A stretch of DNA of 64,000 nt from Sphagnum compactum (taxonomy: Eukaryota), in contig OZ234493.1 of assembly GCA_965153455.1 (NCBI GenBank), positions 23,674,213 through 23,738,212 on the forward strand. The letters are read 5' to 3'. Under the pieces are notes generated by a model, which was not told the DNA's origin, searched no databases, and saw nothing but the letters and a program-made list of their open reading frames with translations. Positions within the stretch are counted from its first letter, which is position 1. Every line of letters begins with the position of its first letter. The position numbers were made by a program, and so were the translations under genes. This document shows positions 2,969 to 26,024 of the stretch, piece by piece.

Positions 2969-3578
2969 TGTCTTCACCTTCTTCAGAGTAAGCCCAAAGG
3001 TGAAGACAGGCAACAGTTGCATCCTTCACCTTGAGGGTTGCCAAATTAAACTCAAGAAATATTATATTTGTTTCAAAGCAGTGTTGTGCTGGTTTTTGTA
3101 CATTTACCTGAAAAATATCCAAGTTCTGAGCAATGTTCACTAGGAAAACTTTAGTTTTAAGATGTGTGAATTGTAGGGCATGTTTGCAAAACATTAGACA
3201 TTTATTCAAGTATAAAGCAATTGATACATAATTATTTAAGACCTATCATGTCTTTTACCACATTGAGAAAATCAAGCCACAAATTGTGTGTACTCATACT
3301 ATTGAGGTTCCTGGATGTATTGCATACTCTTAAAAACAAGCATGCAAAACATTTGTGTATAAACCACATTGACCCAAAAACCCTAATTTAGTTTAAGCAT
3401 GGGACATTTATAATATTTAGAAGGGAAAAGATGAATTTGAGGGTTTTTAGCATGGTACCAGTGTGAGTTTTGGTTCACTCAAGGCATTCACCTTGGCATG
3501 TACAAGCTTTATAGAGTTAATAATTAACTTGAAAAATGTTAAATTTGAACAAGAGACATTAATTTAGTGTAAGTTAAG

Positions 3579-4501
3579 TATCACACACCTAATCCAATTG
3601 TGTCCCGTCCCTAGGTAGGAGATTTTAAAAAAAGGATAGTAACCAACCCAGATACAACTTTTATTAACTAATTTACCAATTCCCTAGAATTAGTTACAGA
3701 AGATGGCTACAAACCACTTAAGGCTTTTTGCTTCTAAATGGTTTGTTACTGTTTTAAGGCCATTTTAATGGCGTGTAACTACTTCACATAGAAAGCCAAC
3801 TTTCCAGTGAGCTTGAAATTCTCAAATTCCTCAACCTCTTTCATAACAAACCCCATGTTTTGCCTTACTTTCGGTCCCACCCTCTTGCTTTTGACCACCC
3901 ACACATTTTTGCACAATAACTTCAGGACAATCAAGTAAATCCGCCACAATCCAAACCATATGACCAACCACACTTGGAACTTCAAAATTACACACCTCTT
4001 ATAGCCTATATCATTGAACTTTGTACATCATGTTCAAGCACACAAATGTTCCACCCAATTGCCACAATCCAAACCACACGACCAACCACACTTGGAACTT
4101 CAAAATTAGACAACACTTACATCTTATATCATCAAACTTGTACATCATGCTCAAGTGCACAACTTTTCCACTCAACCACAAACCCCAAAGGTTCTAGGTC
4201 CATCAATGTCATTAACTTTTTCTATTCACCGCATATGTTATTCCACTTCCTTTTTTTTATCTTTCTTCCTCCAAACTAAAATCCCTATTACTTTTTTTCT
4301 AGCATTCTTCCTCTCTTCTATTTCCAACACTCTACCTTCTGAATTTTCTCAATATTTATATAACCATATTCACAATTCTTCTAGAAGCGTCATCTCCAAG
4401 GTCATCATGCATGATAATTTTTGTAATTTTCGCCCGTCACATTTTGCTCCTTATTCTTAATTAAGCCTTCCTTGCCATTTGGTTGCATGAAGAACGTAAC
4501 A
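3579..4501 (-). repeat. 3' LTR of the gypsy element
   Basis: Colinear with 26025-26839 (both begin tatcacacacctaatccaattgtgtc on +). Minus-strand start TGTTAC is preceded by the polypurine tract GGGGGAGAA (4502-4510). Internal ~120 bp duplication near 3940-4180. Confidence 0.9.
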
Positions 4502-4748: not shown

Positions 4749-5899
4749 GGGGTACCATTTTCATCTTATTAAATATTGTTTGGATGAGTATAATCCCTTC
4801 TTTTTCATACATGTCCCCCAAAATTCTTCAAGTTCAACTAAGGCTTTTCCTTCTGTGGTAGTTTTGGGAAAAGTTGGTTGGGCCTTGGTACAAATTTCTT
4901 AAAAGATCACATGAATAACATCATGAATCCTCCATCTTGGCAGGCAAATCCAATTCATAAGCCATAGTTCCAATTTTTTTAATAATTTGGAAAGGTTCAT
5001 AATACATTGGGGAAAGTTTGTAACTTTTCCCCAATTTCAATTGGCTTCTTTTCAGGGCCACTTTAAGGAAAACCATATCCCCATCATCAAATTCTCTAAA
5101 TTTTTTTTTTTTATTAGCATAGGTTTTAGACCTATCTTGGGTTTTTTTCGTGCATTTTGTAATCATATCTTGTTCAATCTACATCCTCACAAACATTTGA
5201 TCAACAATTTTTACACAAGTCATAGAAACATGCCAAAATGTTGGTGTTAAACAATCTTGTCCACAAGTGGCTTCAAATGTGTTCATCCCAATTGATGTAC
5301 ATGTGGGTTTTTATTATAAGAAAATTCCACCAAGTGCAAATATTCCTCCTAAGAACTTTGCCTTTGACCAACATACATTCACATCATATCTTCTAGAATA
5401 TAGCTAGTCCTTTCAATTGAACGACACTAGCCAACGAGCATCGAATAGCAAGCGATGAATGGGTGAGCAAGCTCAAGTGACCAACAAGGAATCTTTATAG
5501 CATATTTCATGCCACATCATCAAATATTTTACAAATATTCTCATGCCACGTTGGTTCACTTTTGTGACGTGGCAAAATATTCTTTGCTAACTTGCAAAAT
5601 AGTCTACCACATGGATTAGGGTCCAGTCTCAAAACACACAAATTAATTTCTTTTGGGGGTCTTTATGGGTGAAAATGGTGGTTCAGAATTGTACCCATAA
5701 ACCTAGGGATCTTTTAAAGATTACAAACCACATTAGAAACAATCACCAAAACAAAAATGATTAGCCTGTCCAAGGATGTTAAAAATACAACATATTCCAA
5801 AAATGATATTCATTGCACCATGAAATTAATTTTTCCTATATCATCATTGGATGTTCTCCACCAACACTAGCAAATAATAAGGTCTGTTAATAGTGAAAA

Positions 5900-8800
5900 T
5901 GAAAGAGGCACTCCTATAGTTTTATTATACTGTCATTAGCTCTCAAATGCTTTAGCACATGCCAACAACCATTGAACCTCGTCCCAACTCCACATGGGAT
6001 AATGAATGAAATTTTCAAATTGGCCACAATACAATTATGTTTTGTAATATATAATACAAGTGTTTAAATTGCACCCATGCTCCATGCCCACCTAAAGAAG
6101 CTACTAACGTGACAATGAAATATAAATGGGAACAACATGGATAATTTCCAATTGACTATCAAAATGCTTGTGGCTATAGAGTATGTTGTAGATTCATCCA
6201 TACCCAGGGGGCTAGACATCTATAGGGGGCATACTAGAAGAAGGAATGAAAAATTTACCAACATCCCAATTGTTGGTGTGTTGTTGTGTTCACGTTTAAA
6301 CATTAAAGGCCTTCTCACCTTCTTCCCACAATGAGATGTGGGCCAACTGCTTGCATTTGCAGGTCTGATTACATTCGGTTTATAAGTTGAAGAAACCTGG
6401 AAAGTGCTTGAAGTGGAAGGTTCGCCTCTAAACAAACTTTAAGGGTTGGTATGTCGTTCCAAGTCAAACAAAAACCCAATTTCGAATTCTTCAAAGGATG
6501 ATACCTCTTTTTGAGTTAGGTTGACACCATGTTGAACAAGCCATACAGGGATGAATAGATCATCGACACTATTGGGTTGACAAGCGAGAACAACCACACG
6601 AGGATGAGAAAAATTGATGCGATTAGGCCTATGTGACTTGTCATCCACACTTGGCAAAAAGTTGACACCGTGCTTGGCAGAACCAAACACCTCCTCACCC
6701 TCCAAATGAGGAGTTCGTGTGGTGAACAAAGATTCAAAAGTATTATTGGCAATGACTATCGCAAGCTTGGAAACATCCCCCGAAAAATGGGCCCTCCTCA
6801 AAAGGAGTTCATTTCTATCATGACCTTTCCTAAAAGGACCTCTTCGCAAGTAATGTTGATATAGAATGGACTATTTAAAATCCTGAACATAGTTGTCGCA
6901 GGTGGCTATGTACAAAGAGGTGCCACACTTTCTCGACTATTGTAGCCAAATGTTATGCATAGTATCAGCAAGATTGCAAATCGGCATATCTACCCACTCA
7001 ACATCGCTAAACTTTTGCAAATACCAAGAAGAGTGGATTAGACCAAAAGTAGGAACAAAGAATATAGAAAATAAATCCCTAAACACAATATGTGAAAGGA
7101 AAATCTTACATGGGCCATGAACCTGCCCCATTGTTTTAAACAAAAGTGCTAGAAAGCAAGCCAGTTACCAAGTTCATGAAGAGCAAATTCAACTACAGCT
7201 CCTGACGAGAACCACTAGCTAGCTACAGATAGTTACATACTTAGTGTCTGCCTCTTCTAAAGACTTGGAATTTTTGTAATCAAAGCAGAGGGCCTTATGC
7301 TGATCCTACAGTTGAAGTTTGATCAATTGTTTAATATGCCTATCAAGCAATTGAGTCCAATGGAACAAACATGTACGTTCTTTGTCCACCATACTTATAG
7401 TGGCATCAACACAACCATAAACAATTTTGACAGTAGTCCAATTTGCTTGCACGATGTCTGCCATGAATCCCTTGAAGTTAGGTTTAACATACCCGTGTTT
7501 GAGCATTGTTTGGTTGAGCTTTGTCCACATTATCTGTTGTGCTTTTGTGTCTTTGGATTGCATGTCATAGACTGCAATGGTCATGACTTTGCAATATCTT
7601 GGATCATAAACATGACAGGCCATTGTTGTCCAACCAGCGACTTGTTTTACATGGTCAAAAATGATCCATGAGTTCTCTAGATCACCCCTAGGCTGCATTT
7701 GTGCAACAAGCCCAACTCTGCTCCCAACCTCATTGACGAACATCTTGAGATATAACCATATATTTGGCTTGGGAAGTAGCATTCTTGGATGAAATTATAA
7801 TGACTCTTAGATTTCAACTCAAGGATATTGTTAGTGTAACCTCCACCCAGGCGATGCTTGAAAGAGGCAACAAGGTTGCACATTTGGCGAGCTCAACATA
7901 ATGAATTTGTCTTGAATTTCTTCGAGCAAATGGCCTTTGAAAACCTTGCAACTGTTGTCACTACTATCATTGAACAAATGTTTTGTAAGGAAGGATTTGT
8001 TGGCACTCAAAGAGATTGCAGATATTTTGGCATTGGGCATTCGGTTGACCTTCTCTTCTATCAACTTTTTAGTTTCATCTGCATCCTTTCTGCACCTCCC
8101 ATCTATAATAGGGTGAAGATGCACACCAAGGTGAATCGTAGCTTTCAAAACAGACTATTGTTTATGGACAATGTAATAAGTTCAACCTTTACATGGGTTG
8201 ACACAAGATGGTGAGGAATTGTAGAATTTGCAAATGACAAACAAACTCAAAGGTCCAAAAAGGACCTATCCTTTCAACGACACCTAGGTTGATTCTCCGA
8301 CCCAAGAAATCTCATTCCAAGCCCTAGAATAGACTAAATAGTCATAGTCCATCTTGACACAATGCAAGTGCCCCAAACAATGAACCTTCCTAAAACTCAA
8401 ACTAAAACTATTTTTGATGTTAGTTGTGATGACCTTCAACCAAGCGTGGCCATCATACTTTCTATCCATGCCTTGCATCTATGTCAAGGATGGATTATTG
8501 GGAGATAAGGTAGGTAATTCGAACAGAATGTCGTGGGAAAAAATGAAACAACTAAAATTGTAATCTTATCATAATCTAAATTACGCAACTCATTAGATGC
8601 ATGTCTAGTTACTGACATTGTGTGCAAACAATCAACAACAGATTATATGACGAGATCAATGTGGAAGGCTCCAATGTTGGTTAATAGAACACAGCCTCCA
8701 AAGGAGCAAACAAACTTGGGCGAAGCCACACTGTTGAATTCTCCACCAAGGATGGTGAGCCTTCTTTGGATGAAGAACCAAACAAGAGAATGAATACGGA

Positions 8801-9192
8801 TGAAGGAACAATGTTTGGGGTATGGAGATTGACATCAAGGTCAAAATGTCTTTCGTCTTGTTGTATCTCGAAATTGTTGTTTTTACCACAAATGTTGTTG
8901 TTTTTGGCGTCAAGATGGTTTCCTGGGAATGAGTTTAAACATTAACGCCCACAACCCTATAACGTCCAAAGCTCACCACCCATTCCTAACCTTCAATTGT
9001 AGCAATGGATATTTGATACACTAAACTTGAAACATTGTTATTTGCATCATAAACAACATCTTTGAAAATAAGCAGTGATCCAAGTTAGAAACCAAACATA
9101 ACACACAAGCATTTTTCAATCACAACAATAGTATCAGTTCCATCTACTAAAATGGTGAGTTCAAGCCTACCATCAACACGAAAAGTTGCCAT
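5900..9192 (-). pseudogene. MULE-family DDE transposase with N-terminal GCM-like zinc DNA-binding domain (disrupted)
   Basis: GCM-like MDRKYDGHAW..TTNI..RKVHCLGHLHC (8284-8478), then CKF...PSCVNPC and HLGVHLHP. MULE core IIFDHVK..WTTMACHVYD..KGFMAD..ANW..VYG..ERTCLFHW with CxxH (7306-7782). PICNLADTMHN corresponds to the NxxE catalytic segment. Many stops and frameshifts; ends approximate. Confidence 0.82.
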
Positions 9193-9629
9193 ACTAAAGA
9201 CGGACGTAAGAAACAATGGAAGATGAAATGAAATGAAATAACAAAGAAAATAAGGAAAATTATTCAAGTTGTTGTGAAGGAGTAAGTCAACATAACAGGA
9301 TGAAGTTGGAAAACAAATAGGAGTAAGCTAAACCAAAGATAAACATGAGGCGATAATAACCTCCAATAGAAGATTCCACCAAAATCTGTGGAAAAACATA
9401 GGTGGACACTTAATGAAGGCATGGGGGAGAAAAGTATGTAAATCAATTATGTGCACACCATATTGTGCGCTGTTGAAGGGTGTGGGCAGAGAAGCGCCAA
9501 TTTATGATATCATAGTTGTTTGCCAGTGGAAAATGATACATTGCCATTAAAGAACACGAATCGAGTTGATCAACCAAATGCAAGGCAAACCTTTAGACGC
9601 CCAATAAATGAAGGCAGGGGGCATTGGCA

Positions 9630-11500
9630 GTTTGACAATTGTTTCCCAATTGGAAGCAGAATACATCAAAATCAAACATGGCGCGATCAAAAGGTAGGTG
9701 GAAATGTGTAAAAGCACATACACAACATAAATGACATATTGTTAGAATAGTAATGGACAAGGGACAATGAAAAGAATTCCAAAAACCTAAAAGTGAATGT
9801 GGCAAAACATTTTTCTACACTTTTAAAGGACAGAGGTTGAGCGTGCAACAATGAAGTGACTTTGTGCAGGTTAAAATCCGTTAATCAAATCTAATGCAGA
9901 AAATTTATAAGATGATTAGAAATCAACACAATGGAGTTTGCATCTCCAATTTGATTTTTGGCCACATTCTCTAGTATGGAAAATACAAAAGGGGATTTTA
10001 TGGCCATAGAAGTATAGGATAGATTGCATGGCTATAATTCATGGAAGGAAGGGTATGTTGTAATGTCAGTGAAAAGTAGATTAGGATAACATATCGAAAC
10101 TAAAAAACAGATAGGAATAACTTAAACAAGAGAAAACATCTCAAATAGAAGAAGCAATTGAACACAAAGGAAACCTTTGGAAGCCCAATTAATGAGGGCG
10201 AGGGGAAGGTATAAGTGTGGATCAAATAATTGTGGGCTATTGAAGTCTATAGGAAAAGAAGCACCAATTATGTCGCAACCCTAGCTTTGGGCTCGCGACC
10301 AAGGCAAAGGGAATTGCAAGGGTGCGGGTCAAGAGGAAGCCCGGGAGTTAAGCCAAGAGAAAGCCCGGGAGTTGAGCTAAGAGGATGCCCGGGAGTTAAG
10401 GCAAGAGGAAGCCCGGGAGTCGCATCACATACTCCCGGGAGTGCTAGAAAGTGTGAGGGAGTATGAGGGAGTGAACTCTCACACTCCCAAGGCAACTCCC
10501 ACTTGGGGAGATGGAGTCCCGGTGGACTCCCAAAACTTCAGAGAGCGATTGCAGGGGTCAAACCTCAATGTCTTGTGATGTTCTTTATATCATTGAAAAG
10601 CTCTTGGAGCGTAAATGTCTAAAATGGGCTCACATGGCTCATTTGAATCTCTGAAACACAAGTTATGGCCAAAAGAAGGGTCGGGAGTCGAACTGCCAGT
10701 TTGACTCCCGACCACTAAAAGTCGGGAATCGACCCGATTTACTTAGCTGCAGGGGACGTGCCACATATCGTTGGAAAGCTCTCGACAAGAGCTACAACTT
10801 TGCTTCAGACCGCATTGCGATCCGAGGTCTGCTCGCAAAGTTATGGGGCTTCAAAGTTGCAGGAGTCCCATTTGGCGCGATTTCGGGACTCCCACGCGGG
10901 AGTCCCGGGAAAAATAGCCATTTGGATGTAGCCTCCGTGGAGAGCTGCAGAGTATACTATAAGGGGGAAGGTGGTGGCTTCCCCCAAGTCCGGGCCGTGG
11001 TGAGTCTTGTGTGTCCGTGTTGCCCGTGGCTCGTCCTAGCACCAAAGTGCTCCAACTATGCACTAACCACTTTGTGTGGGTTGTGTGCAGGCCCGTGTGA
11101 GTGAATAAGCTTGTCAATTCTTCCTAGTCTATCCCGGGACTTCTAGCACACCCCTCTCACCCCTCCTCTAGTGCTAGAAGTCGGGAGCGTGCTCCAAGTT
11201 CCAACTCCTTCCGCATTGCCACATACTTGGACCCTCAAGTGGGTCCACTAGGAACTTGGGAGTGCGTCAAATTAACTATTTGACAATTGTTTCCCAATGT
11301 TTAGCATAGTACATCGAATTGAAACATGGCGAAATCAAAGGGTAGGTAGAAATTTAGAAAACGATGTACACATTATAAATGATATATTTTTAGAACAATA
11401 ATAGACAAGGGACCATTAACAGAATTCCAAAAACCTAAAAGTGAATGTGATAGAACAAATCTCTTTAATTTTTAAGCATAGATCGTGCAAAAATGAAGCA
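9630..11500 (+). repeat. ~220 bp diverged direct repeat (9630-9830 and 11279-11500)
   Basis: Both copies share tttgacaattgtttcccaat...agaattccaaaaacctaaaagtgaatgtg. Confidence 0.8.
10271..11269. mobile_element. Solo LTR inserted in the MULE
   Basis: TGTCGCAACC...GGGAGTGCGTCA (TG..CA) with perfect 5-bp TSD AATTA (10266-10270, 11270-11274). GC-rich and little decayed, with internal 21-bp tandem units (aagaggaagcccgggagtt) at 10331-10440. Confidence 0.92.
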
Positions 11501-12729
11501 ATTCCTTGCGCGATAAATTTTGAAGATTCCCAACTAAAAAATCCAAACCATAAAGCATAAATTCTAGCAGACTATGACCTATTTAGCACTCACTAATTGG
11601 GTCATGAATAAAAGTTCAACAAACACTATTGAAAAGGTCTAGAGTGGGAGAAGGGATAGTTTTTCCTAAAAAGGAAATAGTAATTACATAGTTTAAGGGA
11701 AAGTTAATAGCGAAAAGAAGAAAGTAATTCCAAAGTTAAGTGCATATGTAATAATAATTAAAGCATCATAGAATTCTGTCCATTGGAGTTTGGGTTTTAC
11801 GAACTAGCTAAGTTGGAAAACATTGGTGGATGGTGGAGGCTGTTAAATGATGAAAAGGTTAATGAAGTTTTGACAACAAGTCATTTCAAAGAAAACACAT
11901 AATAATATATAGAAACTTCTAGAAAATAAGTTTCAAATTCCCAATAATTCTACAGATATATATCTTACATAATGAGAGGAAGAAATTCTTTGAAAGATGC
12001 AGAAGAATATTGACTCCAAAGAGGGAGGTCTAGGGAAAAGAAGACATCGTTGTGGACACAACTAGACACCAATCAAGTGTGGAACCACAATGGCACCAAG
12101 GAAGATGTGAGGACTTGCTCTTAGGATTCAAAAGCAGCAGGTGAGACACCTTCGCAATTTCATATTTGATTGCAGGAAGAATCAAATGTGTAATATTGTA
12201 TGTTATAATCCTTTCAAACCGTTTATCTTTTTGAAGGAAATTGAGAGTCCGAGGGAAGACAACAAATAGATTTCTCCCAAGAAATAGAAGAGGAGGTATG
12301 CATATTAAACTAGTTTGTGCCTACAAAGAATTTAGTATTTGGTAGAAAATATTCTAATTTTATAAATGGACTTAAGATTTTGACAAATCTTAATGTTTCA
12401 TTCCGTAGGGAATCAGAACAAAAAGCTCCAAAAGAAGTCAAGGACAGAGCACATAGCTCTCGACTGTTGATAGCTCGGTAAAAAGGGAGGGTTTTAAGGT
12501 TTCCATTTGAAGCATAATTGTAATGAAATATTGTATATAAGGAGAGACACATAGAGAATGACTTCTTTTTGCATTGTTTTGTGAAGGAGGAGGAGGAGAG
12601 GTAGGGAAGTTCAAGAGTGTTAAAGTCCATTGGAGAAGCGTCCAAGCTCAAGATATATCCTCCTTCAACTTGTTTTTCTTTATTTTATTTTGTTTTAAAT
12701 TCCTTCTTTTTTCTTTCTAAGATAATCTG

Positions 12730-13445
12730 ATCATGAACTTGGATTTGTGGGAGGAAAGGTATGCCGAACTTGAATTCAGTTGCACAAAAAATGCGAGGCC
12801 AAGCTCAAGCTCGGCCATTTTCTTTTGTTTGTTTTTTTGTGTTAATTTTTTTTTCGTTTTTTCTTTTGTAAGTCTATAGTAGCACAAGCAGACAAATTTG
12901 AGCTCGGCCATGCATTCTTGCGCAGTTGAACTCAAGTTTGGTCAGTTTTTATTTTTGGTTCCTATAAGCATTCCTATGGGAGTCTGAGCTACAACTCGGA
13001 TTTTTGTAGCAAAAAGGGCTAAACGTGAATTCAACTGTGCATTCTTACGTGGCCAAGCTCATGTTCGGTCTTGTTGGCCATGAACAACTTGGGTTCTTCA
13101 TAGCCATCGGCACCAACTCTTAATGCCGAGAGTTGGCGCCCATGTCTGGAAAAAACACAAGTTTTTTTAAAATAATTTTTTAAAAAAAACTATATTATAT
13201 ATTTCCTTGTTCTTCTTTTGTTTTTTCAAATCCGCTCCAAGATGAATGGCTGAAGTTGAGCCCATCTTCTCATGCTTGCGCATCTGAGCTTAAGCTTGGC
13301 CACTTCTTTATTTAAAAAAGAAATTTGGAACTTTTTTTAGCAGAATCCAAGCTTGTGTTCCCGTGAAGAATTTGGGTCCTTTGCGGCCGTTGATGCCAAC
13401 TTTTAATGCCGAGAGATAGCGCTGATGGCCATGAAGAACCTAATT
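12730..13445. repeat. Array of degenerate palindromes GGCCGAGC-N4-GCTCGGCC plus two long hairpins
   Basis: Examples: 12797-12816 GGCCAAGCTCAAGCTCGGCC, 13051-13070 GGCCAAGCTCATGTTCGGTC, 13282-13301. Hairpin ggcaccaactct-taatgccg-agagttggcgcc at ~13109-13140, second copy ~13372-13441. Confidence 0.7.
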
Positions 13446-13662
13446 TCTTCATTTTAAAAATGTTCTTGTTTTATGTTGTTCATTTCATATTCACTTTTGC
13501 AATGTTGTTTTATTCATTTTGCATGTGCTTATGCAAGGTTCTAAAGGAGCACAAATTACAATTATGGACATTGGACATGCATGCTTTGACCTTTAGGAAT
13601 GTCTTTTGTTAATTTCTTTTTTTCTTCTCAACACATTCATGTGAAAAATCCATGATTTGTAG

Positions 13663-16600
13663 GTTTTTGGAGGTGTGGAACGTTGGACAACTTATCTTTT
13701 GATAGGACAATTCAAGCTGTTTAGATAAACAAGATCAACACCACAACACTTTTAGAGAAGTATAAAATGCTTCCCAAGTGCAAGGCTAGGATGAACATCC
13801 TTCTCTGCAAGATGATATTGATGTATGTAATCCGCCCTACTTGAAAATTGATGTTCACAAAATGGAGCAGGCCTTCCACTTTGGATACCACAAGGTCTTT
13901 TATGTGTCCCCATTGAACTCGAAGGGAGAGCAAGAATTCATTGATGATCATGAGGTCGGTTGGAATTGCCATTGGCATTCAAAAAGCCAGAGGTTTGAAA
14001 CTTTTTCTTAGCGGATCTTGATTTAAATTCTCTCTCAAGATGTTTTTTTTTTGTGTGGGCTGGCAACCATAGGCTGTAAGCCTAGATGCCATATATTTGT
14101 CATGTCCATGGTGATGATGCTTCGTGGCATATCAATATGGACTCCATCTTGGTGGACACTTCTCATGGGCTAGTTGAACTTTTGACAACCATGACAGATG
14201 GAACATGTAATTCATTAATTATTATCATTGATATAAGGGCTTGCATTTTAATCTATTGGAATTTAATGTTCAATGTTCTCAACTTTAGTTGTTTGAAAAT
14301 TGCTTTCTATGGGAAGGCTTGTGGAGCCAAATCATGTTCGACCTAGCCTCATCCAAGAATTTTTTCGAATCCTATCCATTAGTATCATATTTTTGGAACA
14401 ATTCCAAGAAGTTTTACCTATAGATGTGTATAAAAGATGCCAAAGCAAATTTCGGAAGACTTGGCATTCTCTTACTTATGAGGCGTTCTTCGACTACATT
14501 TACAAGGTGAACCAAATTTTCTTCCTTCTTATTTTATTTGTGTATTTCGCTTCCTGGCTATTATTTGGTAACATTTTTCACATGCCTTGATTTCTTGATT
14601 TTTTTTGCAGCACGAGATCTCAATTGCTAAAGATGTCGTTGTGAAGATGTACTATGAAGAGTTCCCCCGGAGGCTAATCATCCCCCCATCAAGCTTAAAG
14701 AGCGGATGGAGAAGGCAATGGAATAGGTCAGGAAAGAACATTACTTTGCTTTTTGCAAGCACCTTCCTGTGTGCATCTTGCCCTTGGCACGGATTTCTTC
14801 AAGTAAATCCAAATTCATTAGGACATGAACTCTGAATAAGAGATGTTCACAGAGAAGCTAAAAATGTTAATTTACACATGTGTTCTCCTAAACAAAAACT
14901 TGTTTGGCTCAAGTAGTGAATGAGTTAAGCGTTTTTCAAGAAGCCAAGAAATTTCCTACGTTTGGTTTTTAACGTTCAATTTGATAAGTGGCTCCACAAG
15001 GCCACATTTTGGCATCAAGTGATCATCTTTATTCATTTTAGTCTTTGGATATTCCCCATTCTTCTTAATTGTTTTGACTTTGATATTTATTTCTTGTCTC
15101 ATGCAGTTAGAGGTGGAAGCTCTCAAGTTCTATGATTATATGGTCTTTGACCTAGAATTAACTGTCAAAGATGTCCCTAGAGTTGTCTTTTTTGCCTGCT
15201 ATATCTAGGGGGAGGCAATCCATTTGGGAGTCTGGTTTCTTCCAAGAATATAATACTCAGGATGGATTTCAGAGAAGCAAGAGCTGGGAGCTACAAATTG
15301 GGGCAAAGGAGGCTTTCAAGAGAGTTCTCTACAGGTAAACATCATACGCTTCCTCCTTGTGTGGTTTTGGGCTTCATTTTATATTCAAGAACATGGATAT
15401 CGGTCCAAATCTCAATGCCGAGAGTTCGGCATTAGTGGCTTGATTTCTACAATCATGTTATAATTTCTAGTCTTCATCCTCCTACTTTATGTTATCTTAT
15501 ACACTCTAGTTCTAGGGCAAGTACTTCTACCACGTTCTCCTCCAGGTTGGAACAATTGACCGACTACCGCACCTCCTTTTCAAGATTTGGTGTGATCCCA
15601 AGGCAAACAACTCTATGTTCTACAAAATCCTTCTTAAGGATTGGTTGTCTTCACACCTCTTGCACTATGGTTTGTACGTTGAAAGGATTGCACTCCATCA
15701 TCAAAAATCACCCTCTGCAAGAGAATTGATCTTGGGTTCCAATCTGGGTTTTAGGCATCCTTAACTACTTTAGTTGAGGCATCCAAAAAGAGAGGTAGGA
15801 GGAAGGGGAAGGAGTAGGTTAAAAAGATTGATGACACTTTTGGACACAACGGGGGAGTATGTCGAAATTCCTATGCATGGGAATATTCCATTTGTGCAAA
15901 TCACTCTTCCTCGGGGTTCCCTAAGGGTGGTGGTTCCTTCTCCACATTACACCCCCACTTGGCCTATTCTCAGTGTAGTTCCGTCTAGTAGGCTAGCTGG
16001 ATGGCATTGCATTTCCCTTCCATTCTCCTGGTTGACCATCACTTCATAGAGGTAAAAGACTAGGAAGTGGCTTGAAGAATTTGTCAAAATTTTAGAAGTC
16101 ATTTGCCAGGTTGCTCCCTTCTCAATGCATTTTTTATCCTTCCTTCCTTGTAATCGATTACTAGTTTTTTAATTTCATCCTTTCCCCATTTGTAGGCAAC
16201 TCCTGAGGGCAAGGTGAGCCTTGTCCTTGTCGATGTTCCAAGGGACCTTCTCATGCCATTTGTTTCAGCTTCCTCTATAAAGATTCATGTATGGAACAAG
16301 CTAGTTGAAGACTATGTGGTCTCCATTTTCGACTTTGCAAACAAGTTCTTAGCAAACGATGGGGCAATCTTGTTGTTCCACCCTGACGATCTCCATATTC
16401 TAAAGGAAATCAGATCATATATGGAAAGCTATAGTTTCCAAATTTGGATGAAGTGGGCGATTGTTAATTATCTACTATTTACTAGTTCAAAGGACCCCTC
16501 CATGAAGGTATTGATCCAATTTTTTCCCTTTCTTTAGTTTCCAATTTTTTGCATGTCCCCCTTCTCATTGTTCTCTCCTCTAGAATGTTACAAACCTTGT

Positions 16601-17150
16601 TGAGTCGAATTACTCTACTAGTGAAGGATCCTAGTGAATTGAATCCACAATTGAACTTTTTTGTGTTCTCCCATGCGTTTGAGGACCTATTACAGAAGGG
16701 GGTCAATGTTGGGAATGAGGACGTCCTTTACAACCATATTAATGCGTCTTCCATGAGTAAGTCCAAAAACGGAAAGCCATTTCAAGCAGCCAAGGAAATT
16801 CATCATGTTACTATTCAAGCCTTGATAGAAGTCTACTTTTAATCGAGATCCTTAGTTGTGGACTTGTCTGCCTCTACAAGTTTGCTCAAATTCCTTTCAT
16901 TTAGTTCTTTCCTTGCTAGCTTCATTCCCATTTTTGTTTCTAACTTTCATGATCTAAGCAGGCAATAACATTAGAGCTTGCTAAATCCTCTAGCGTCATA
17001 TTTTAGCTTTTGAGTCGGACATGGAAGTCTTCGAGGAGGTGCTCAGCCACTTGTTGAGGTTCCCAACCCTATGGGAAAATGCCGCACTATACAATTGGAT
17101 GATGAGGACTCCCCATCGCCAAAATGGTCTAGAGGAAACTTGGATTGTGA
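13663..17150 (+). pseudogene. Spliced ParB/Srx-like domain + beta-class N6-adenine/N4-cytosine DNA methyltransferase fusion (transposon cargo, disrupted)
   Basis: VW(A)GNHRL*A*MPYI at 14053-14097 resembles ParB DGNHR. MTase motif IV-like SLVLVDVPR (D at 16232), then KFLANDGAILLF and GKPFQAAKE..IQALIEVY. Motif I-like LVVDLSAST|(S/G)NNIRAC spans intron 16880-16961, followed by RHILAFESD (16994-17020). About 10 exons with GT-AG introns; several in-frame stops. Confidence 0.78.
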
Positions 17151-18392
17151 GTAAGTTTATCTTTTCATCTTTTTTCAGATTTGTTGTTGTGGATTCCTCT
17201 CTATTTTTCCTAATTGCCACCTCTTGTACTCTTGCAGAGGGCTTCCATTGCCTACTCTCGTGGGTCTTACTTTTTTCTCAACAAAGGATTTACAACTTAG
17301 TCCATCTAAGAACTTCCTATTGTCTTCATATGTCGAGGTTGAAGCCCAGGTCATGGCTTCCATGATCTCACCACTTAGCATTAAAAACATGTTAAGTATG
17401 ATCCTTTTGTTAGATCTCTAGTTGATGACAAGGCCATCAAGTGAAGTAGATCCTATTTGTTGAGCTCGGGGGTGGATCACTAAGTCCTTGAATCCTCTGT
17501 GTGATCCTATGGTTGGGTGGAGAGCTCAATTTCATTGTTTTTATTTCTCTTTTGGCAACTATTGTAATCAATATTCTATTTCAAATTGTTTTTCCATCCA
17601 AAGACCTATTGATCCCTTGTACCATATTTATTTGATTTATTTCATTTTGGAGTTTTTTATCCTTTCCTCCTCTGATTGTGCATGATCCATTATCTAACAT
17701 TCTTCATTCAAATTTCTCCATTCTTGGAACACAATTATTTATCTCTAGAATTGAGGTTCAATCCACATAATCCATAATCCATTGTGACATTTTTGATTCA
17801 TGCCAAAAGATGGTTTTTGTTATTTACTTCCTTCATTGATCTTTATTGATTACTCAATGGATTTTCAATGCTTGTAATTCTTCTGTTGTATTTTACATGT
17901 TGAATTTATTGCCAAGAATGATATAGTTTTATAGTCTAGACTTTTATTGATCCATTCTAATTTTGAGTGGCAGCATATTGAAGGTCATTCACATGTATGC
18001 AATGCATTATTGTTCCTTATACATGACTCTCAATTTTTTTAATCCTTTTTATTATAGAGGAAATGAAATGCAAAATTTGGGATATCACTTTTGTCAAATA
18101 TCTCAAAATGTGATGCCTATTTTTCAACCAATAATATCGTCTACTTGAATTAGCCTATGCATTTATTATTATTATTTTCTCCCCTGATGTTCTATTCAAA
18201 GATAGTAAACATCCTACTTTGTTACTTCAAAAATGCATATCAGTTCAAAAAACATTTTCTTTATACAAAATATATCTCTTCATGCATCATATCCTCGAAA
18301 AAACCTGTTTATAGAGACTTGTTAACTTCTCCTCCTAGGGTTTATAATTGTTGCCAATTTTAGAGGTGTCTATAGACTTTGCTTCAAATATA

Positions 18393-19034
18393 TTAAGCTG
18401 AGCCAAGTTCCATTGGTGAATCGTTCGATTCGTTGGAACCCATTACGGATTGTGGTGTAGGCGCTAGGGTCATGTCTTTTGAGTCTGTCTCTACATAGCC
18501 ATGGAATGGTGGGAGAGTATTCTTTGTCTCCTATTCTGAGTCCGTCACTACATCTTCTGTGTGTGGTGGGGAGTTCTATTCTTGTTCTGGGCTTCTAGGA
18601 ATGTAGCTGGCTGATATTAAGGAATCCAACTTTTTGCAAGTACTAGTGTTTCATATTCATCGTCTTCAGCATCAGAAGTGTTCCTCGGTCAATTTCGTAG
18701 CAAAAATGATTCACTTATTCTCCTCTCAACTTAAAATCCAAGTAGGTAGTCACACTACCTATGAAATCATTTTCTATAGTTTTGATTAGTTAGGGTGTTG
18801 GCCATGGATTGTTTCCAAGAAGTTGTTGCAAATGTTCGGAAACTCTGAGCAAAACATTTTTATCATTGTCCCATATATCTTGTACTCCTGCAAATGGTTA
18901 TATGATGCCCAGTACCCAACCTCTGCCTAGAACTCTTCATCCATACTCTTTAGTTCTCTTATATCTACTGAAGGGTAATCGTCCGAATCCTTTAGTGTTT
19001 GACAAGAGTGCTTAGGATATGGATATTGTGACAT
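18393..19034 (-). pseudogene. Orphan cargo ORF (~210 codons, disrupted) in the MULE
   Basis: MSQYPYPKHSCQTLKDSDDYPSVDIRELKSMDEEF*AEVGYWASYNHLQEYKIYGTMIKMFCSEFPNIC... with an acidic S/P/T-rich tail; no recognised family. Confidence 0.45.
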
Positions 19035-20046
19035 TGTGGAAATGAGCAATTCTACTCAAAACTCATTTCTTTGATTGCTACTTGGAAGTTCACTAAAAGA
19101 TTCTAAACTCTACTCGTGCAATGTTACAAAATTATAAACATCTCCCAAAGTCCAAAATTTTATACGGTTTCTTTGAGATTATTACATTCAATGGCCTTTT
19201 GAAAATATTCTACCTTTTTTTGGACCATGTGGATGGGATCGACTACATTAAAATGTTATAATTGGTAGAACAACTATGTTTCCTACTCGTATCATGCGTG
19301 GTGTGTGTAACATGTAATTGTGATCACTTCACTGGCCTTCTGGCCTTATGTGGCTTCATATTGTTTTTTGTTTACATTCCTGTTTCCATGCCATGTGTCC
19401 ATTTCATGCCTTCTGGCAACTATTATTCCTACATTCCATTGCATTCCTACATAGACCTTCATATCAAGTGTGAAACACTCAAAACATTTTCTGGCCTCAA
19501 TTGATATTTGGATGTACAAGAGGTCATTAAATATAGTCCATGAGCCTACGAGCATGCGAATGAACAAGCAAGCATGAACGCATGAGCAGGACTGAAATAA
19601 AATCTAAACTGAATGCACAACATAATAGACATTTGGGAACATGTCTACTTCCTGAAATATTTGTAGTTGTCTAATCAAATTCTGCATTTAAATCAAACAT
19701 AACAAACATTGGTTGTTATTGGACCATCTGGTTTTTGTTGGCAAGTTCAAACAATTACATGTGCCAAAATGGCTCCAAATTGCAGAATAGCTACATTTGT
19801 TTCAACAGCCACAACATCATGTATATGATTTTGATTATCATTTATTGCTTTGACCTGAAGTTTTTATTAATTGTTTATCTCAACAATCACTACGGATTTG
19901 TTCAAGATTGCTCAAATTTAGCCATAGTTTTATTTTAATTTTTCATAAATAAATATTTCTTTTTGTGATTTCACACTTTGAACAAATATTCATCTTCACA
20001 CATCTATTGGGCTACAATTCAATGTAAATAATAAGATTTTGGTTTT

Positions 20047-20684
20047 TCATTCAATTTTTGGTTTGTTGTTTTTTCTATTGTCGTACATGTCTTGTGGTTT
20101 CATGGCCAGTCCTATCATTCAACGATTAATCGATTGTTTTAAGACTTTGTTCTTCAATTCTTGTGGAACCCAAGCTTGCCTACCTAGAATTGCATAAAGT
20201 TGTTGTCAAGGATACATGAATTCTATGGATAGCAAATTCCCAATGTTACCAAGTCTTTTGTTCATAAATCATTCAATAAGCTTGTGAAAAAATGCTTTGG
20301 AATAAGCTTCTTTAAACTTGCACGTTCTTTGAAGAAGTCCATTGCATGTGTAAACATTACCAAATTGTAGTCCTCCATATCATTCTTGGAAACGTTTGTA
20401 GTTTGTTTCATTATAGAAATATTCTTTTTGTCCATCTTCACATTTGCCCATCACCATGTTGCCCATTCCTCTGTTTTGTTAATTACCTTCTTCCATTTTG
20501 TTCCCCATGTTTTGATTTCAAGCAAATGCCTAAGGGGGTCTAGCCTGGTATTATCTCTTGGATATTCCAATGATTTTTTTGTCATCTCACAAATTGTTTC
20601 TAGTATGCTTGTGATTAACGTGTATTCAATTGTAGATTCCAAGGTGTTTGGTTTGACAATTGGTCACAATTTTCTTTTTGCCAT
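20047..20684 (-). pseudogene. Orphan cargo ORF (~210 codons, disrupted) in the MULE
   Basis: MAKRKL*PIVKPNTLESTIEY..LDPLRHLLEIKTWGTKWKKVINKTEEWATW*WANVKMD..MDFFKERASLKKLIPK; long near-open frame; no recognised family. Confidence 0.5.
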
Positions 20685-21778
20685 TGTAGTAGAGAAGTTT
20701 TACGATTGCAAGCATGCGGTTGAGGACAAGAGGATGTAACTAGGAAATACTCGTGCAAATAATGCAAATTGAGGTATTCTACATGCAAATTAGTAGTAGA
20801 GAGAAAAATAATGCAATTTCATTGTTCAAGTTGCCAAGGGGTTGAAAGAGCGAATGAAAATAAAAAAGAGTTTAAAATGGTAAGGTGTCCTGGGGTACCT
20901 GATATTGTCCCAATTCCTAACGGTCGCATAACTTTTTGTGGTGGACAGGTAGTGTTTGAATTGGCACATACCTGTTGCTGGGTCAACGGGTTTATGTGCC
21001 ATTGAATTTGATGTAATTTCAAATTTTATATGGTTTGGATGCTGCAAAATTGGAACATGAAATACTAGTTCAAGTATAACTTGAGCATTTCATGTGATGA
21101 ATTGTTCATAATAAACCAACATAAATTTCTTGTATCCTATTTCTTTAATTCAGTTTTTTGCAAAACAAAACTTGTTGCAAATGTTCATGAAAAAGTTCAT
21201 CCATTATCATTTTTCATCCACATTTTCATCCATAAATATCATTCATCTGTGACATGTGGAAGAATATTTTTCCATGTCACAAAATATTTTGTCCTAAGTG
21301 TTATAAAATATTCTTTAAATATCATGTCCATGTGGGAAAAATATTCTAAAAAAGATTTGGTCTTGCTCCCTTGCTCATGCTCACCTACTCATGTTCATGC
21401 TCAAAGGCTCATGAAATAGCAACCCCCCTTTCAACCTAGGCATCAAACTCCAAATGATGAGTAGTAGTAAATATATTTTTTGCCTAAGGTTTTAAATAAC
21501 ACTATCCAAAAGGTACTAACAAACTTTGAGTCCCTCTCAAAGATAATTTATTTAGGCAATGCATGGATCCTATATATTTCTTTTATAAACAACAAGGTTG
21601 TTTTAAAGGCAAAAGTAGTTGTTTTTGTGGGGATAAAATTTGCTTGCTCTTACAAGCGGTCCACCACAACCATTATGGCATTATGGCCTTTTTTAGTTAT
21701 AGGTAAGTCAACAATAAAGTCAATATTAATGGATTGCAATTTTTTTATTGGTATTTGCAAAGGCTAAAATAGGCTAGC

Positions 21779-22364
21779 GGGTACATATGCAATATAATGA
21801 GCCACTGTAAGTGTAACCAATCCTGAATAACACACTTGTCAATTTTTAACTTCATTTAGGATTAAATATTTTTCATGTAATCTACATAGTGTGATGTAAT
21901 ATACACTCAAGAATGACATATAAAAATATGAGTCAATTATATCAACATTTGAGGGTGAAAAAGGATTAATTAAACACTTGTAATCAATCATGAGGTCTTT
22001 AGTAATTCAAATAAGAATTATCAAAATTAATCTAAATTTGTTTAGAAATTTTCATATTCATGTAGATTGAATAATTATTAAACTTTACATGGTTTTGGAT
22101 CATCACTGGAATTGATATATAAATAAGTTGTAGAATTCCAAATTCCAAATTTTCTTTCCAATAACTCTTGGATAAATATGAAGATAAATTTTAAATCAAG
22201 AAACTAAATTTTATTATAAAAATTTATTGTACAAATCACATATGTGATTAAACCATAAATTTTGTGCAATGGTTGCATGCCATCTCAATTTCCAATTTCA
22301 AGTACTTGCCCTTTTGAAAGGAACAAAGGAGTTGGGTTTGGCTCATTTTATTGTGGATGTACCC
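21779..22364. mobile_element. PIF/Harbinger (Tourist-like) MITE in gypsy integrase
   Basis: TIRs gggtacatatgcaatataatgagcca / tggctcattttattgtggatgtaccc; TAG duplicated at 21775-21777 and 22365-22367; AT-rich interior; integrase sequence continues on both sides. Confidence 0.8.
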
Positions 22365-24095
22365 TAGGGGTTTTTATTGCCCCACCTTTGATACTTGGCA
22401 TTTATAACATTTCTTTACATAATCACAAATATCCCTCTTCATGCCAGGCTAAAGAAAATTTTCCTAATTATAAGGTAGGTTTTCTAAAATCTTAAATCCC
22501 CTACAATTGTGAGATTATGGTAATCATGCATAATTTTTAATTGATAACCTATGCCCTAAAGAATACATATCAACCATTGTAATACAATAATCCACCTTTC
22601 AAAATATAGGTCAAATATTTGCCTAGTTTTTCTGACCTTTGGACCTCATGGCATAAAGCCTCAAAAAGGGCAACAAAGTCTGGATCTTCCCCATACTTGC
22701 CCTTTATCTCTTCAATTAGCCTTCCCTAATTAGGGACATATTGTTTATCCATCTTCTTCAGGACAAGGCATTAGCAAAAAAAAAATTTCCCCCTTTACAT
22801 AGCATATTTCAAAGGAAATATATCGCATACATTTTACCCACCTACACTACCTCTCACTCAAGGTGGGTTGTGAAGCCAAGAATTTTAAGCTTTCATGATT
22901 TGTTTCGATTTTGAAATTTGTATGTAGCAAATAATGTTACCATATTTTCAAGGCATGTACGATGTCTAATAATTCCTTTTCATAATAAGGTAGTTATGTT
23001 CTCCTAGACTTAATATCTTAGATTTATAAGCCACAACATAACCTTTTTACATCAAAACAATTCTTATGACCATATTATTAACATCTATATAAAGAACCAT
23101 ATCAACCACCCCATATTCCATTAGTTTTAATATAAGGGGTAAATAGTGAAAGCCCCCTTAAGGGCATTGAAACCATTGGCATTCACAAGCTCGCTCAATT
23201 TCATCATTTCCTTTTAATAATTCGATTAATGGGGATGACACTTTATAAAAAAATTCATAAATCTTCTATAAAATCCGTCAAGGCCCAAAAAACTTCATAT
23301 ATCTATCCAGTCATTAAGGGTAAGCCGATCCATAATTACTTGGACTTTCTTAGGATCAACTAAAATACCTTCCTTAGAAATAATATGGCCCATGTATTCT
23401 ACTTGGGGTACAAAAATTCACAATTGTTCATTTTAACATGCAATTTATTTTCCCTTAAGATTTGTAAAACTTTCCGCAAATGCCTTTCATGTTCCTCAAA
23501 TGTCTTCGAATATACCAAGATGTCATCCATGAAAATCAACACAAAGTTTTGTATGTGTCACCAAAAGAAAGTGTTCATTAAACACATAAATGTAGTTGGG
23601 GCATTAATTAACACAAAAGGCAGAACAAGGAACTCATAATGCCCATATTGGGTTTGGAAAGTCATTTTATTGGAATCCAAATCCTTGACTTAGATTTGGT
23701 GATAATTGTTCTTGAGGTTTATTTTCGAAAAGACTTCAACACCACCCAAGTTGTCAAACAAATCATCAATACGCAACAAAGGAAACTTATTTTTAATTTT
23801 GGACTTGTTCAACCATCTATAGTGTCCACACACAACTTTAATGTGTCATTTTTTTTTTCTGTTTTAATAATAATAGTGCCCCCCAAGGAGATTTATTGAC
23901 ATAAACTTTTTCCAAAAGATCCCAAGTTTGGGTTTCCAACTCCTAATTTTCTAGTAGGGAGTGTCGATAGAACAGTTGAGAGACAAGGATTGTCCCAAGT
24001 ACTAATTCAATAGTATGATCCACATCTCAGTCTTAAGGCAACCCTAGTAGTTCTTCACGAAACACATTTAAAAACTCATCAAGGATCTCACAATT

Positions 24096-24206
24096 CACTA
24101 CAAAAAAAGTTGTCCATGTACGCTAAGTGATTTCATTGGATTTTGAATGAATTCACTACTCTAGTGAATGAGGACTAGTGAATTGCACCCACATTTTGTA
24201 GTAGTG
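24096..24206. mobile_element. CACTA-ended MITE copy 2
   Basis: CACTACAAAAAAA...TTTTGTAGTAGTG with perfect ATT/ATT TSD. Confidence 0.9.
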
Positions 24207-26010
24207 ATTATTCTTACTCCCCACATCCATAATATTGTTTGGGTTATAATCATGGGGATCCTCATGGACACTTATTAAAAATAATTTGTGTCCTTTTTTC
24301 ATTTGGGTACTTAAAAGCAAAGGGACCTTGGGGAGTGCCCTCTTACCTATTAAATGGAATGGTTATCCATTAAGAAGAGACTTTATCACCGAATAGTCTT
24401 GACAAGCAACTCTAATGTCAAATCGCATCAATCATTCCATCTTGGAATATTGTTGTCATATTGCATTCCATCTTGGAATATTGTTATCATATTGCATTCC
24501 ATCTCAAACCTCAAAGTCTACTTTAGCTCGCACCCCTTGCATCCTCATTGGGACTTGCAACACCTTACAACTAGTGACCCCAATCCCATCATTAAGGAGT
24601 ATGGTGGTGCTAAGTCTAGCTCCCATTTGTTGAAGATTAGCCTTAATTTCTACCATCTCTTGTGATAGAAAGTTGTGGGAACTTCCTACATTGATTAGAA
24701 CTATAGATGGTTCATCATTGATATGCTTAACCAATCTAACCACATTGGGGTTGTATTGTACCTCCCCACTATCCACCATAGCAAAAAAATTCAATTGTCA
24801 CACATGCTCTCTAGTAATGCTAAGTAGCTCACATTTTTGGCCTACATCCTCCACTTCTTGTATTACCATACTTGCTGTTGATTAAAAAGATGTGAATTTC
24901 TTAAGGCAATCAAATGATTGATGCCCCTTTTGGTGACAATTAAAACATAAGCCATTAGCTTATGCTTATCTTGCTCCTTATTTGAAAGACGCCTCCATTG
25001 GGTTGATCTATTTATAAATTTGGATCGGGACCTTGAAAATCCTTTAGACCCACTTGGCCTCTTCTACTCCTTTTCCTTTTTGCCTTTTGCAAAGCCAAAT
25101 GGTTGGGGTGACTTCCTTGGCCAAAACCCAAGTCTTTTTCGAGGGCTATACCTTTTTTTTAGGCCTTACGTTGGCTTTCCAAGGTGATGGCCTTGCGGTA
25201 GGCTTCTATTTCCATTGTCAATTCATGACTTTGAACCACAAACTTGATGGATTTATCCAAGCCATTCATAAAAAATCAATTTGGTCTTATTCTTTTAGTG
25301 TAAGGATATATGACACATGTTCATCAAACTTCACCTTGTACTTTGCTACAATCATATGCCCTTGGGTTAGTTCCATAAACTTGAATTTCATTTTATGAAC
25401 ATAGTCTTGGGGTAAATATTGTTCCCTGAAAACACGTCGAAATTTCACCCACATAGTTACACCTTCGTGCCTTTCTTTCATTCAAATCCACCATTCCTTA
25501 CCCTTCTTTTGCATTTAAAGAGATGTGGCCAAAATCTTATCAGCATCCACATAATCTTTGTTAAAAAAATCCTTTAAGGTTTTGAAAAACAACAACACCT
25601 TGGATGCCAAACATTGAGGCAACCATGGAACTCAAGAAGATGTGTCATCTTTTAGAGCTCTTTGTTTATGTTACACCTCCTAGATTTTCGTTCTGTGCCA
25701 CCACCCCTACTATTGGATGATGAATCCCTCGGGGACTATGACCTAAACCTACAATGCCTTTTGTCACCATCAACAACACCTCAAATCACCTTCACTAAAA
25801 TTTCAACTTTCAAGGTTACATTGTCGATCAAATTCATTAATATTTTCCCCAAACCCATTGATATGGTACTAGAAGCTCGGTGACTAATTGTGTGACCTTC
25901 TTGTTGGTTAGTTGGCCCATCCATGGTTTCAAAATACCAAATCACACCACTAATGCATTGAAGCCTTGTTCACAAAACTCATACCCAACTTGGCCCTTTG
26001 GTTCGAAATT

Positions 26011-26022
26011 GTTTTAATACTA
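26011..26022 (-). promoter_or_regulatory. Decayed tRNA-iMet primer binding site
   Basis: Minus strand reads TAGTATTAAAAC two bases after the LTR end; differs from canonical TGGTATCAGAGC only by G>A/C>T changes. Confidence 0.75.
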
Positions 26023-26024
26023 AA

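Follow-up and report, generated by a model that had tools for sequence, protein, structure and literature searches.

A long-dead, probably Mutator-like transposon of Sphagnum compactum with a second gene of putative beta-class DNA methyltransferase ancestry

Results

An inserted element splits a Ty3/gypsy integrase gene

The stretch examined here, called the window throughout, comprises 64,000 nucleotides of the Sphagnum compactum genome (assembly GCA_965153455.1, contig OZ234493.1, positions 23,674,213 to 23,738,212). It holds an inserted element of 16,010 bp (5417..21426), in which a minus-strand transposase pseudogene resembling those of Mutator-like elements (MULEs) lies head-to-head with a multi-exon accessory gene on the plus strand, with an array of palindromes between the two. 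Three observations delimit the element: an 8-bp target-site duplication (TSD), CCTTTCAA, which can be read directly at 5409..5416 and again at 21427..21434; the continuity of the host integrase over the gap; and the homology of other copies, which ends at 21424-21427. An earlier reading of this DNA from its letters alone, hereafter the sequence-only reading, had placed the ends at 5417 and 21425. The left end is retained, whereas the right end is set here at 21426, the last base being ambiguous within a run of C.

The host is a Ty3/gypsy retrotransposon on the minus strand. The C-terminal part of its integrase, downstream of the break, occupies 4900..5416 (-), starts with ERTSYILEDMM.. and matches SH3_Tf2-1 (Pfam PF24626, E=1.1e-15). 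On the other side, 21435..26837 (-) holds gag, protease, reverse transcriptase, RNase H, the N-terminal part of the integrase and a long terminal repeat (LTR), as read with Pfam: RVT_1 at 5.8e-20, RT_RNaseH at 3e-09 and Retrotrans_gag at 1.8e-08, with Integrase_H2C2 (2.9e-04) and RVP_2 (9.1e-04) both slightly below their own cut-offs. The integrase core of the right flank stops at ..SSFGVxCLGxK, and the join across the break, ..CLGxK followed by ERTSYILEDMM.., falls at the DGQ-T-ER position. The claim that one insertion splits a gypsy integrase at its xER motif is thus borne out by CCTTTCAA on both sides and by the flanks as read with Pfam.

The element ends carry a subterminal inverted similarity

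When the first 224 bases of the element were locally aligned with the reverse complement of the last 224, an inverted similarity emerged between a left arm at 5455..5584 (+) and a right arm at 21260..21392 (-). It spans ~130 bp at ~70% likeness, its arms are equidistant from the two termini, and it scores 50, against a mean of 11.9, a standard deviation of 2.1 and a maximum of 22 in 300 shuffles, a maximum of 21 for 222 other pieces of the window, and 26 for the two ends aligned in direct orientation. A repeat search at seed 11 found no inverted pair at the ends, their global alignment was poor, and self-comparison of ten other copies found no inverted repeats at their ends. The terminal inverted repeats of ~170 bp that the sequence-only reading had described therefore stand as an inverted similarity, but a shorter and weaker one; long terminal inverted repeats, expected of MULEs, are present here in this subterminal form.

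The right boundary is confirmed independently by sister copies: homology stops at 21424-21427 in four distinct copies (L001/L002/L017, L004, L026 and L048/L058/L066). At the left, the terminus rests on the TSD, the continuity of the integrase, the left end of the copy L035/L021, which pairs in reverse with the right end of the window element and also with window 5490-5554, and a DNA contig that links 5530 to 21360 with 35 other letters in between, as a short derivative keeping both ends would.

A MULE/SWIM-like transposase pseudogene lies on the minus strand

The transposase pseudogene covers 6021..8642 (-), where tblastn aligns the window with residues 188-1248 of the protein P0026. Its main match contains 16 stops, and the gene is therefore dead. 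The open reading frame (ORF) at 7306-7794 (-) matches 104 of 139 candidate proteins at E<=0.001, the best at 2.5e-56, with 50-65% identity. These homologues are mostly ~700 amino acids long, one of them (P0026) reaching 1278, and none has a recorded Pfam domain. P0026 is colinear with window 8642-6021, including a C-terminal CxC...CxH stretch; inspected by eye, it comprises a Cys/His-rich N-terminal block, a DDE-like core, a (C/S)NLAE..HN block and the C-terminal CxC...CxH. In the ESM Atlas, the named clusters among the matches listed were all MULE, SWIM or ZSWIM RNaseH-like, with scores of 0.89-0.93 and 142-172 shared features. Pfam found nothing in six read-through frames and ten ORFs of the window element. 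A MULE transposase with a GCM domain on the minus strand had been proposed in the sequence-only reading: the position of the gene and its homologues agree with this, but no profile matches either label, MULE or GCM, and it is the Atlas neighbours that supply the MULE name. We therefore take the MULE likeness, which derives from language-model features, as a lead and not as proven membership.

A multi-exon accessory gene lies on the plus strand

The first recognised exon of the accessory gene, at 13737..14199 (+), contains the sequence FFVW(D/A)GNHRLQAW. In the window it is frameshifted and holds two stops; it is kept in 16 distinct copies and represents a single ancestral exon, in frame in L001, L021 and L038. 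Its conserved stretches read ..KIDVxKMExAFxxGYREGDKVFYVSPLNWKG.. and ..FFVWDGNHRLQAW.., and its DGNHR (DGxHR) block recalls ParB and sulfiredoxin, a likeness that is confined to the motif. A profile search of the N-terminal domain against the PDB returned chance matches only (E>=1.2). Middle exons at 14315-14509, 14602-14902, 15591-15683 and 15909-16133 (+) are recognised by frame-specific tblastx conservation with distant copies. Three methyltransferase-like exons follow on the same strand: 16208-16510, with DVPR at the position of motif IV; 16585-16884, with ..VVDLSAST at the position of motif I; and 16940-17157, with ..ILAFESDMEVF at the position of motif II. Conservation of the coding frame of the accessory exons extends to copies at 49-54% identity, and the exons of the window copy hold stops. 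The conserved exons are colinear and on one strand, which suggests that they would be spliced together and that the N-terminal and methylase-like parts would belong to one protein. What had been described as a ParB-fused methyltransferase gene is thus upheld as a plus-strand gene of several exons; the ParB label does not extend beyond the DGNHR motif, as the profiles are blank.

The C-terminal part resembles beta-class amino-methyltransferases

The ORF at 16196-16537 (+) matches 311 proteins at E<=0.001, and 88 at 1e-10, in a representative library of clusters at 50% identity. The homologues are mostly exon-sized ORFs that share one end point, as expected when a gene finder made for prokaryotes is applied to a gene with introns. 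In seven homologues that are longer and intron-poor (P0280-P0283, P0274, P0190 and P0157), the conserved blocks follow one another in the order VDLVIAD[VI]P[DE]xLPVP, FxFAxxxLHDDGA, FKVxLLVR, WRGPxEKDxxFxSSLIxS and xVVDxxAxTG, and the exon that follows in the window and its sister copies reads ..RHILAFESDMEVF... By eye, the alignment can be read as the succession of motifs IV, V-VIII, X, I and II that typifies beta-class amino-methyltransferases. The WRGPxEKD stretch is missing in the window's own subfamily.

Several tools were brought to bear on this resemblance. In the ESM Atlas, each of the 30 nearest clusters consists entirely (100%) of proteins with PF01555, at scores of 0.91-0.93, a range to be read with the tool's own note that shuffled proteins reach scores >=0.9 in 4-10 cases out of 100. 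One of the seven homologues matches the PHROG 'DNA methyltransferase' (phrog_498, E=0.0015), with two weaker methyltransferase PHROGs besides; a PDB profile search places CcrM at the motif-IV position with E=0.24; and in a structural comparison of the AlphaFold model, the 50 matches listed are all folds of S-adenosylmethionine (SAM)-dependent methyltransferases, at Z 3.4-5.2. Foldseek returned no match at E<=0.001 with the same model, PF01555 was not matched by the window ORFs or by ten longer homologues in Pfam, and NCBIfam gave chance matches only for the methylase-like homologues. Taken together, this evidence is weak but consistent. It sustains the resemblance to beta-class amino-methyltransferases on which the sequence-only reading had been built, and we hold with modest confidence that the C-terminal part is a divergent domain of beta-class N6/N4 methyltransferase type and ancestry. 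The expectation that profile searches would return MULE and amino-methyltransferase folds was disappointed, in that Pfam returned neither from the window frames, the ORFs or the longer homologues.

The catalytic tetrapeptide is replaced throughout the family

Motif IV was tallied over 156 sequences, 85 of which showed the motif context by regular expression, a procedure that admits a few false contexts. The canonical tetrapeptide (D/N/S)PP(Y/F/W) occurs in none of the 85. The consensus is instead D[VI]P[ED], with D at position 1 in 53 sequences, V or I at position 2 in 62, P at position 3 in 60 and E or D at position 4 in 39; the window reads DVPR. The replacement is conserved across the family and is therefore not a matter of decay in the window copy alone. 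A motif IV of this kind argues against a canonical writer of N6-methyladenine (6mA) or N4-methylcytosine (4mC) and favours a pseudo-enzyme or an altered activity. The proposal that the element writes, or once wrote, a 4mC/6mA mark accordingly lost its footing with the count of canonical tetrapeptides.

The two genes are paired across diverged copies

Metagenome contigs were scanned with the methylase-like exon, which gave 254 pattern matches; 158 of these were confirmed and 80 loci were kept, corresponding to 47 distinct copies after clustering at 97%. Linkage could be judged in 21 distinct copies with at least 9.6 kb of upstream DNA. In nine of them (L002, L019, L021, L033, L034, L035, L057, L059 and L079) a transposase homologue lies upstream on the opposite strand, and two further copies with shorter flanks bring the head-to-head pairs to 11 of the 47. 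No copy has the genes in another arrangement. The methylase-like exons of the nine linked copies match that of the window at 49-79% amino-acid identity, and a single lineage may account for both L021 and L035. Sister copies whose DNA is ~82% identical can be followed in the same order along window 6295-21427, except for a nested repeat of 1 kb and the variable palindrome region. The recurrence of the same head-to-head order in nine of 21 diverged copies, to the exclusion of any other, refutes chance nesting; a family of DNA transposons with two linked genes, as first suspected from the window, is thereby supported. A rearranged form was also observed, in L034 (8857-9918) and L041 (1317-2386), where the C-terminal, SWIM-containing part of the transposase stands 83 bp upstream of the methylase-like exon.

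A palindrome array occupies the intergenic region

Between the divergent genes, an array of repeats at 12786..13452 contains TGAAGAAC-N4-GTTCTTCA palindromes at 13081-13100 and 13432-13451 together with GGCCAAGCTCAAGCTCGGCC-type units. When up to one mismatch was allowed in each arm, the 64-kb window yielded two such palindromes, both of them in this intergenic region (50 shuffles: mean 0.2, maximum 3). The 47 copies (582 kb) yielded 22, of which 20 sit at the homologous place, 3-5 kb ahead of the methylase-like exon on its upstream side. The palindrome array noticed by the sequence-only reading is thus real and specific in its position, and it looks like a putative array of binding sites.

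Other content, expression and copy number

A conserved coding-like segment at 18795..19007 (-) stands out in frame -3, with 992 summed bits against 583 for the next frame and with matches in 15 of the 17 distant loci compared. Pfam assigns the segment to no family; a third gene may have included it. The conserved region 20238-20654 was also considered as coding and was rejected, as all three frames are alike in the comparison with L077, which reflects similarity at the DNA level. Rfam found no family within 5000-22000.

The nested repeat of ~1 kb (10270..11269) is present at very high copy number and absent from the sister copy L002, where it leaves a gap in colinearity. Its raw DNA depth is 86-173 per strand, compared with ~0.14 per strand on the flank. 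A 24-bp unit is repeated in tandem at 10330-10420, each strand shows long ORF-like frames, and neither Pfam nor Rfam has a match for this repeat. A direct duplication of 204 bp at 79% identity (9631-9834 and 11279-11482) also occurs in L002; it therefore belongs to the element, and its two halves are not LTRs flanking the nested repeat.

In one RNA-seq run, ~12% of which was read, 25 of 30 bins, all coding parts included, had no polyA RNA reads. The nested repeat is the only part with appreciable polyA reads, many of which continue into unlike sequence at 10659-11006. Raw DNA reads cover the flank ~0.3-fold and the element 1-25-fold at >=85% likeness; as a rough figure, this points to a large genome with tens of related copies.

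The surroundings of the insertion site are AT-rich (G+C 32-43%) and hold many decayed repeats. An LTR of the host retrotransposon lies at 3575..4499 (-) and its partner at 26021-26837; the two are only 83.1% identical over 490 nt and 76.4% over 458 nt by blastn, and the host element is therefore old. The sister copies of the inserted element have diverged from each other to about the same degree, and both elements are thus very old. No gypsy copy with an empty insertion site was present among the collected loci. Three metagenome-derived contigs (L011, L012 and L014) have the right junction, the gypsy interior and the LTR in common with window 16271-26832 at 88-92% identity and are unlike the window upstream of 16271; they come either from a related genome that has this very nested insertion or from a duplicated segment.

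Discussion

Based on these observations, we propose that the window contains a long-dead, formerly autonomous Mutator-like element belonging to a two-gene family whose accessory protein includes a domain derived from beta-class methyltransferases, a reading that we consider likely. A cut-and-paste transposon of the MULE superfamily would have inserted into a Ty3/gypsy integrase gene and generated the 8-bp TSD. The family would consist of two, perhaps three, genes, with the transposase on one strand and the accessory gene, made up of several exons, diverging from it out of a shared intergenic region that bears the palindromes. The transposase would act on the ~170-bp ends. The accessory protein would have its DGNHR domain at the N-terminus, followed by a basic linker and, at the C-terminus, by a domain of beta-class (N6/N4) DNA methyltransferase descent, in which the order of motifs has been retained and the DPPY-type tetrapeptide replaced by D[VI]P[ED]. 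Such a protein might bind the palindrome array of its own element and, as a DNA-binding factor, assist or regulate transposition or silencing, and is more likely to be a pseudo-enzyme than a canonical 6mA/4mC writer. The window copy itself, whose main transposase match contains 16 stops and whose accessory exons are interrupted by stops and a frameshift, is dead, as had been recognised, and has no function of its own. The sequence-only reading was largely right in what it observed; the two-gene family and, with modest confidence, the methylase ancestry were right as well, the ParB label stays putative, and the active 4mC/6mA writer was probably wrong.

How well does this proposal withstand its rivals? 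A number of observations weigh against it. Apart from one PHROG match in one of seven homologues, Pfam, NCBIfam and PHROGs recognise none of the three proposed domains: Pfam is blank for nine full-length transposase homologues (no MULE at E<=0.1), and Pfam and PHROGs find neither ParB nor sulfiredoxin in eight fragments of the N-terminal exon. The AlphaFold model of the N-terminal domain, with a predicted local distance difference test score (pLDDT) of 49, is unusable; the methylase-like model has a mean pLDDT of 58 and is confident for residues ~260-350 only, and its best structural Z, 5.2, is at a level that the tool itself calls common. Every copy examined carries stops, which leaves no intact gene model, and the fusion of both parts in one protein is putative. 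At the two ends of the element, the outermost ~35 bp are dissimilar, and 12 of the 21 testable copies have no transposase within 10 kb. The TSD, too, is short for a MULE: it measures 8 bp in this one copy, and duplications made by MULEs are usually 9-11 bp long. In one rival reading, the methylase likeness would be spurious and the accessory gene would encode a lineage-specific protein with a generic Rossmann-like half-domain, descended from neither N6/N4 methyltransferases nor ParB. The blank searches with Pfam and NCBIfam, the lack of Foldseek matches at E<=0.001, Z values that nowhere exceed 5.2, the E of 0.24 for CcrM and the Atlas scores of >=0.9 attained by 4-10 in 100 shuffled proteins are all in keeping with that idea. 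However, four independent weak signals (Atlas, CcrM, PHROG and structure) agree on the family or fold, and the conserved blocks follow the beta-class order; we regard a spurious likeness as unlikely. The opposite possibility, that the intact accessory protein is an active ParB-fused N6A/N4C DNA methyltransferase, serving to mark the transposon or to escape silencing by 5-methylcytosine (5mC), draws on the same Atlas clusters and PHROG match, on the order IV...X...I...II in the alignment and on algal transposons whose ParB-plus-methyltransferase genes are predicted, in the published description, to make 4mC or 6mA (PMC12477816). Against it stand the absence of (D/N/S)PP(Y/F/W) from all 85 sequences, the failure of PF01555 to match any of 17 homologues scanned, part of them against other libraries, and the loss of the WRGPxEKD stretch from the window subfamily, whereas the proven plant 4mC enzyme, DN4MT1 of Marchantia, retains TSPPY according to its description (bioRxiv 10.1101/2021.02.12.428880). 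An active enzyme is, in our judgement, quite improbable.

The remaining alternatives concern the carrier. MULEs are known to capture host genes, and the plus-strand gene could be captured host DNA, as in Pack-MULEs, or a chance neighbour, which would suit the 12 testable copies that lack a nearby transposase. Such copies could be deletion derivatives of the complete element; nine distinct copies keep the genes head-to-head at an exon identity of only 49-79% to the window and none has them otherwise, and colinearity embraces the whole element up to the common right terminus, so that we give capture or coincidence scarcely any weight. An element of another DDE superfamily, for example hAT-, Sola- or Plavaka/Zisupton-like, would agree with the unmatched Pfam models for MULE and SWIM and with the length of the TSD, 8 bp being typical of hAT and also of Zisupton. 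The algal carriers of ParB-methylase genes are likewise described as Sola1 and Plavaka elements. Opposed to this are the named Atlas neighbours, which among those listed are MULE, SWIM and ZSWIM only, and the CxC..CxH stretch and (C/S)NLAE..HN block seen by eye in P0026; a carrier outside the MULEs strikes us as improbable. The Mutator-like, two-gene element thus remains the reading that we prefer.

ParB and methylase accessory genes of transposons are already in print (2025) for brown and red algae. Sola1-1_Ec32 of Ectocarpus, 21.5 kb long, is described as having a ParB-like and DNA-methyltransferase accessory gene on the strand opposite its transposase, with 4mC/6mA as the predicted product (PMC12477816). 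Like the 16-kb element studied here, it is a large DNA transposon with an accessory gene opposite the transposase, and the proposed order, an N-terminal ParB-like part and a C-terminal N4C/N6A methyltransferase-like part, is the same. It differs in that its authors could name its domains and that its carrier is Sola1, whereas here profiles do not match, the motif is non-canonical, the carrier is MULE-like and the surrounding retrotransposons are of plant type. Plavaka elements of red algae are reported to carry the accessory genes PAG2, an N6-adenine methylase with SET, and PAG3, a ParB with a 2-oxoglutarate (2OG) oxygenase; inverted-repeat arrays lie beside the Plavaka ParB gene, and homologues occur in Mutator elements of Chondrus (bioRxiv 10.1101/2025.02.11.637652). 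These, too, are prokaryotic-type accessory genes in a DNA transposon, and the inverted-repeat arrays by a ParB-type gene parallel the palindrome array of the present element, but the ParB and methylase parts of Plavaka reside in separate proteins with other partners, and the likeness is one of description alone. By description, then, and not by sequence, the gene in the window shares the traits of the algal type, lying in a DNA transposon, opposite the transposase strand and near inverted-repeat arrays.

Fusions of ParB with N6_N4 methyltransferases are described from phages and bacteria (PMC12704722, PMC4738411) and as typical of phages (PMC12704722). They share the proposed domain order and, in alignment, the beta-class order of motifs; unlike the element family, they keep the canonical catalytic motif, as far as described, and are detected by PF01555 and PF02195. 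N6A methyltransferases are described as few in land plants (PMC4738411). The available text of a preprint on adenine methyltransferases in retrotransposons mentions neither MULE nor ParB (10.64898/2026.05.21.726589). Our literature search, whose scope excluded supplements, subscription journals, Repbase and Dfam, found no land-plant DNA transposon with a gene of this kind.

Family-specific second genes are familiar from the MULEs of flowering plants, namely mudrB of MuDR and the anti-silencing genes VANB and VANC of VANDAL elements. The element described here resembles them in having a second gene of its own, and by analogy a role in regulation or anti-silencing is plausible. To our knowledge, mudrB, VANB and VANC have no sequence relation to the accessory gene, and the proteins that they encode are not methyltransferase-like.

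What might such a gene have done for the lineage that carried it? One can imagine an old and widespread MULE lineage of large-genome plants whose obligatory partner is a degenerate descendant of prokaryotic ParB-methyltransferases, a pseudo-methylase acting as a 'reader' or 'clamp' of its own palindrome array that would control transcription or shield the element from silencing. It would be the land-plant counterpart of the algal accessory proteins and a possible source of domesticated plant genes. This scenario is speculative and we advance it with considerable doubt. Should the reading that we prefer hold, prokaryote-type ParB/methylase accessory genes would not be confined to algal transposons, but would have persisted, catalytically altered, among the Mutator-like elements of a plant-type genome, in a lineage whose diverged relatives in public data number in the hundreds (311 clusters at 50% identity). 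The finding also marks out a large 'dark' protein family beyond the coverage of Pfam. The conserved palindrome beside the gene and the replacement of the catalytic motif across the family would together provide a test system for the question whether transposons employ proteins derived from methylases as binders of DNA and not as writers.

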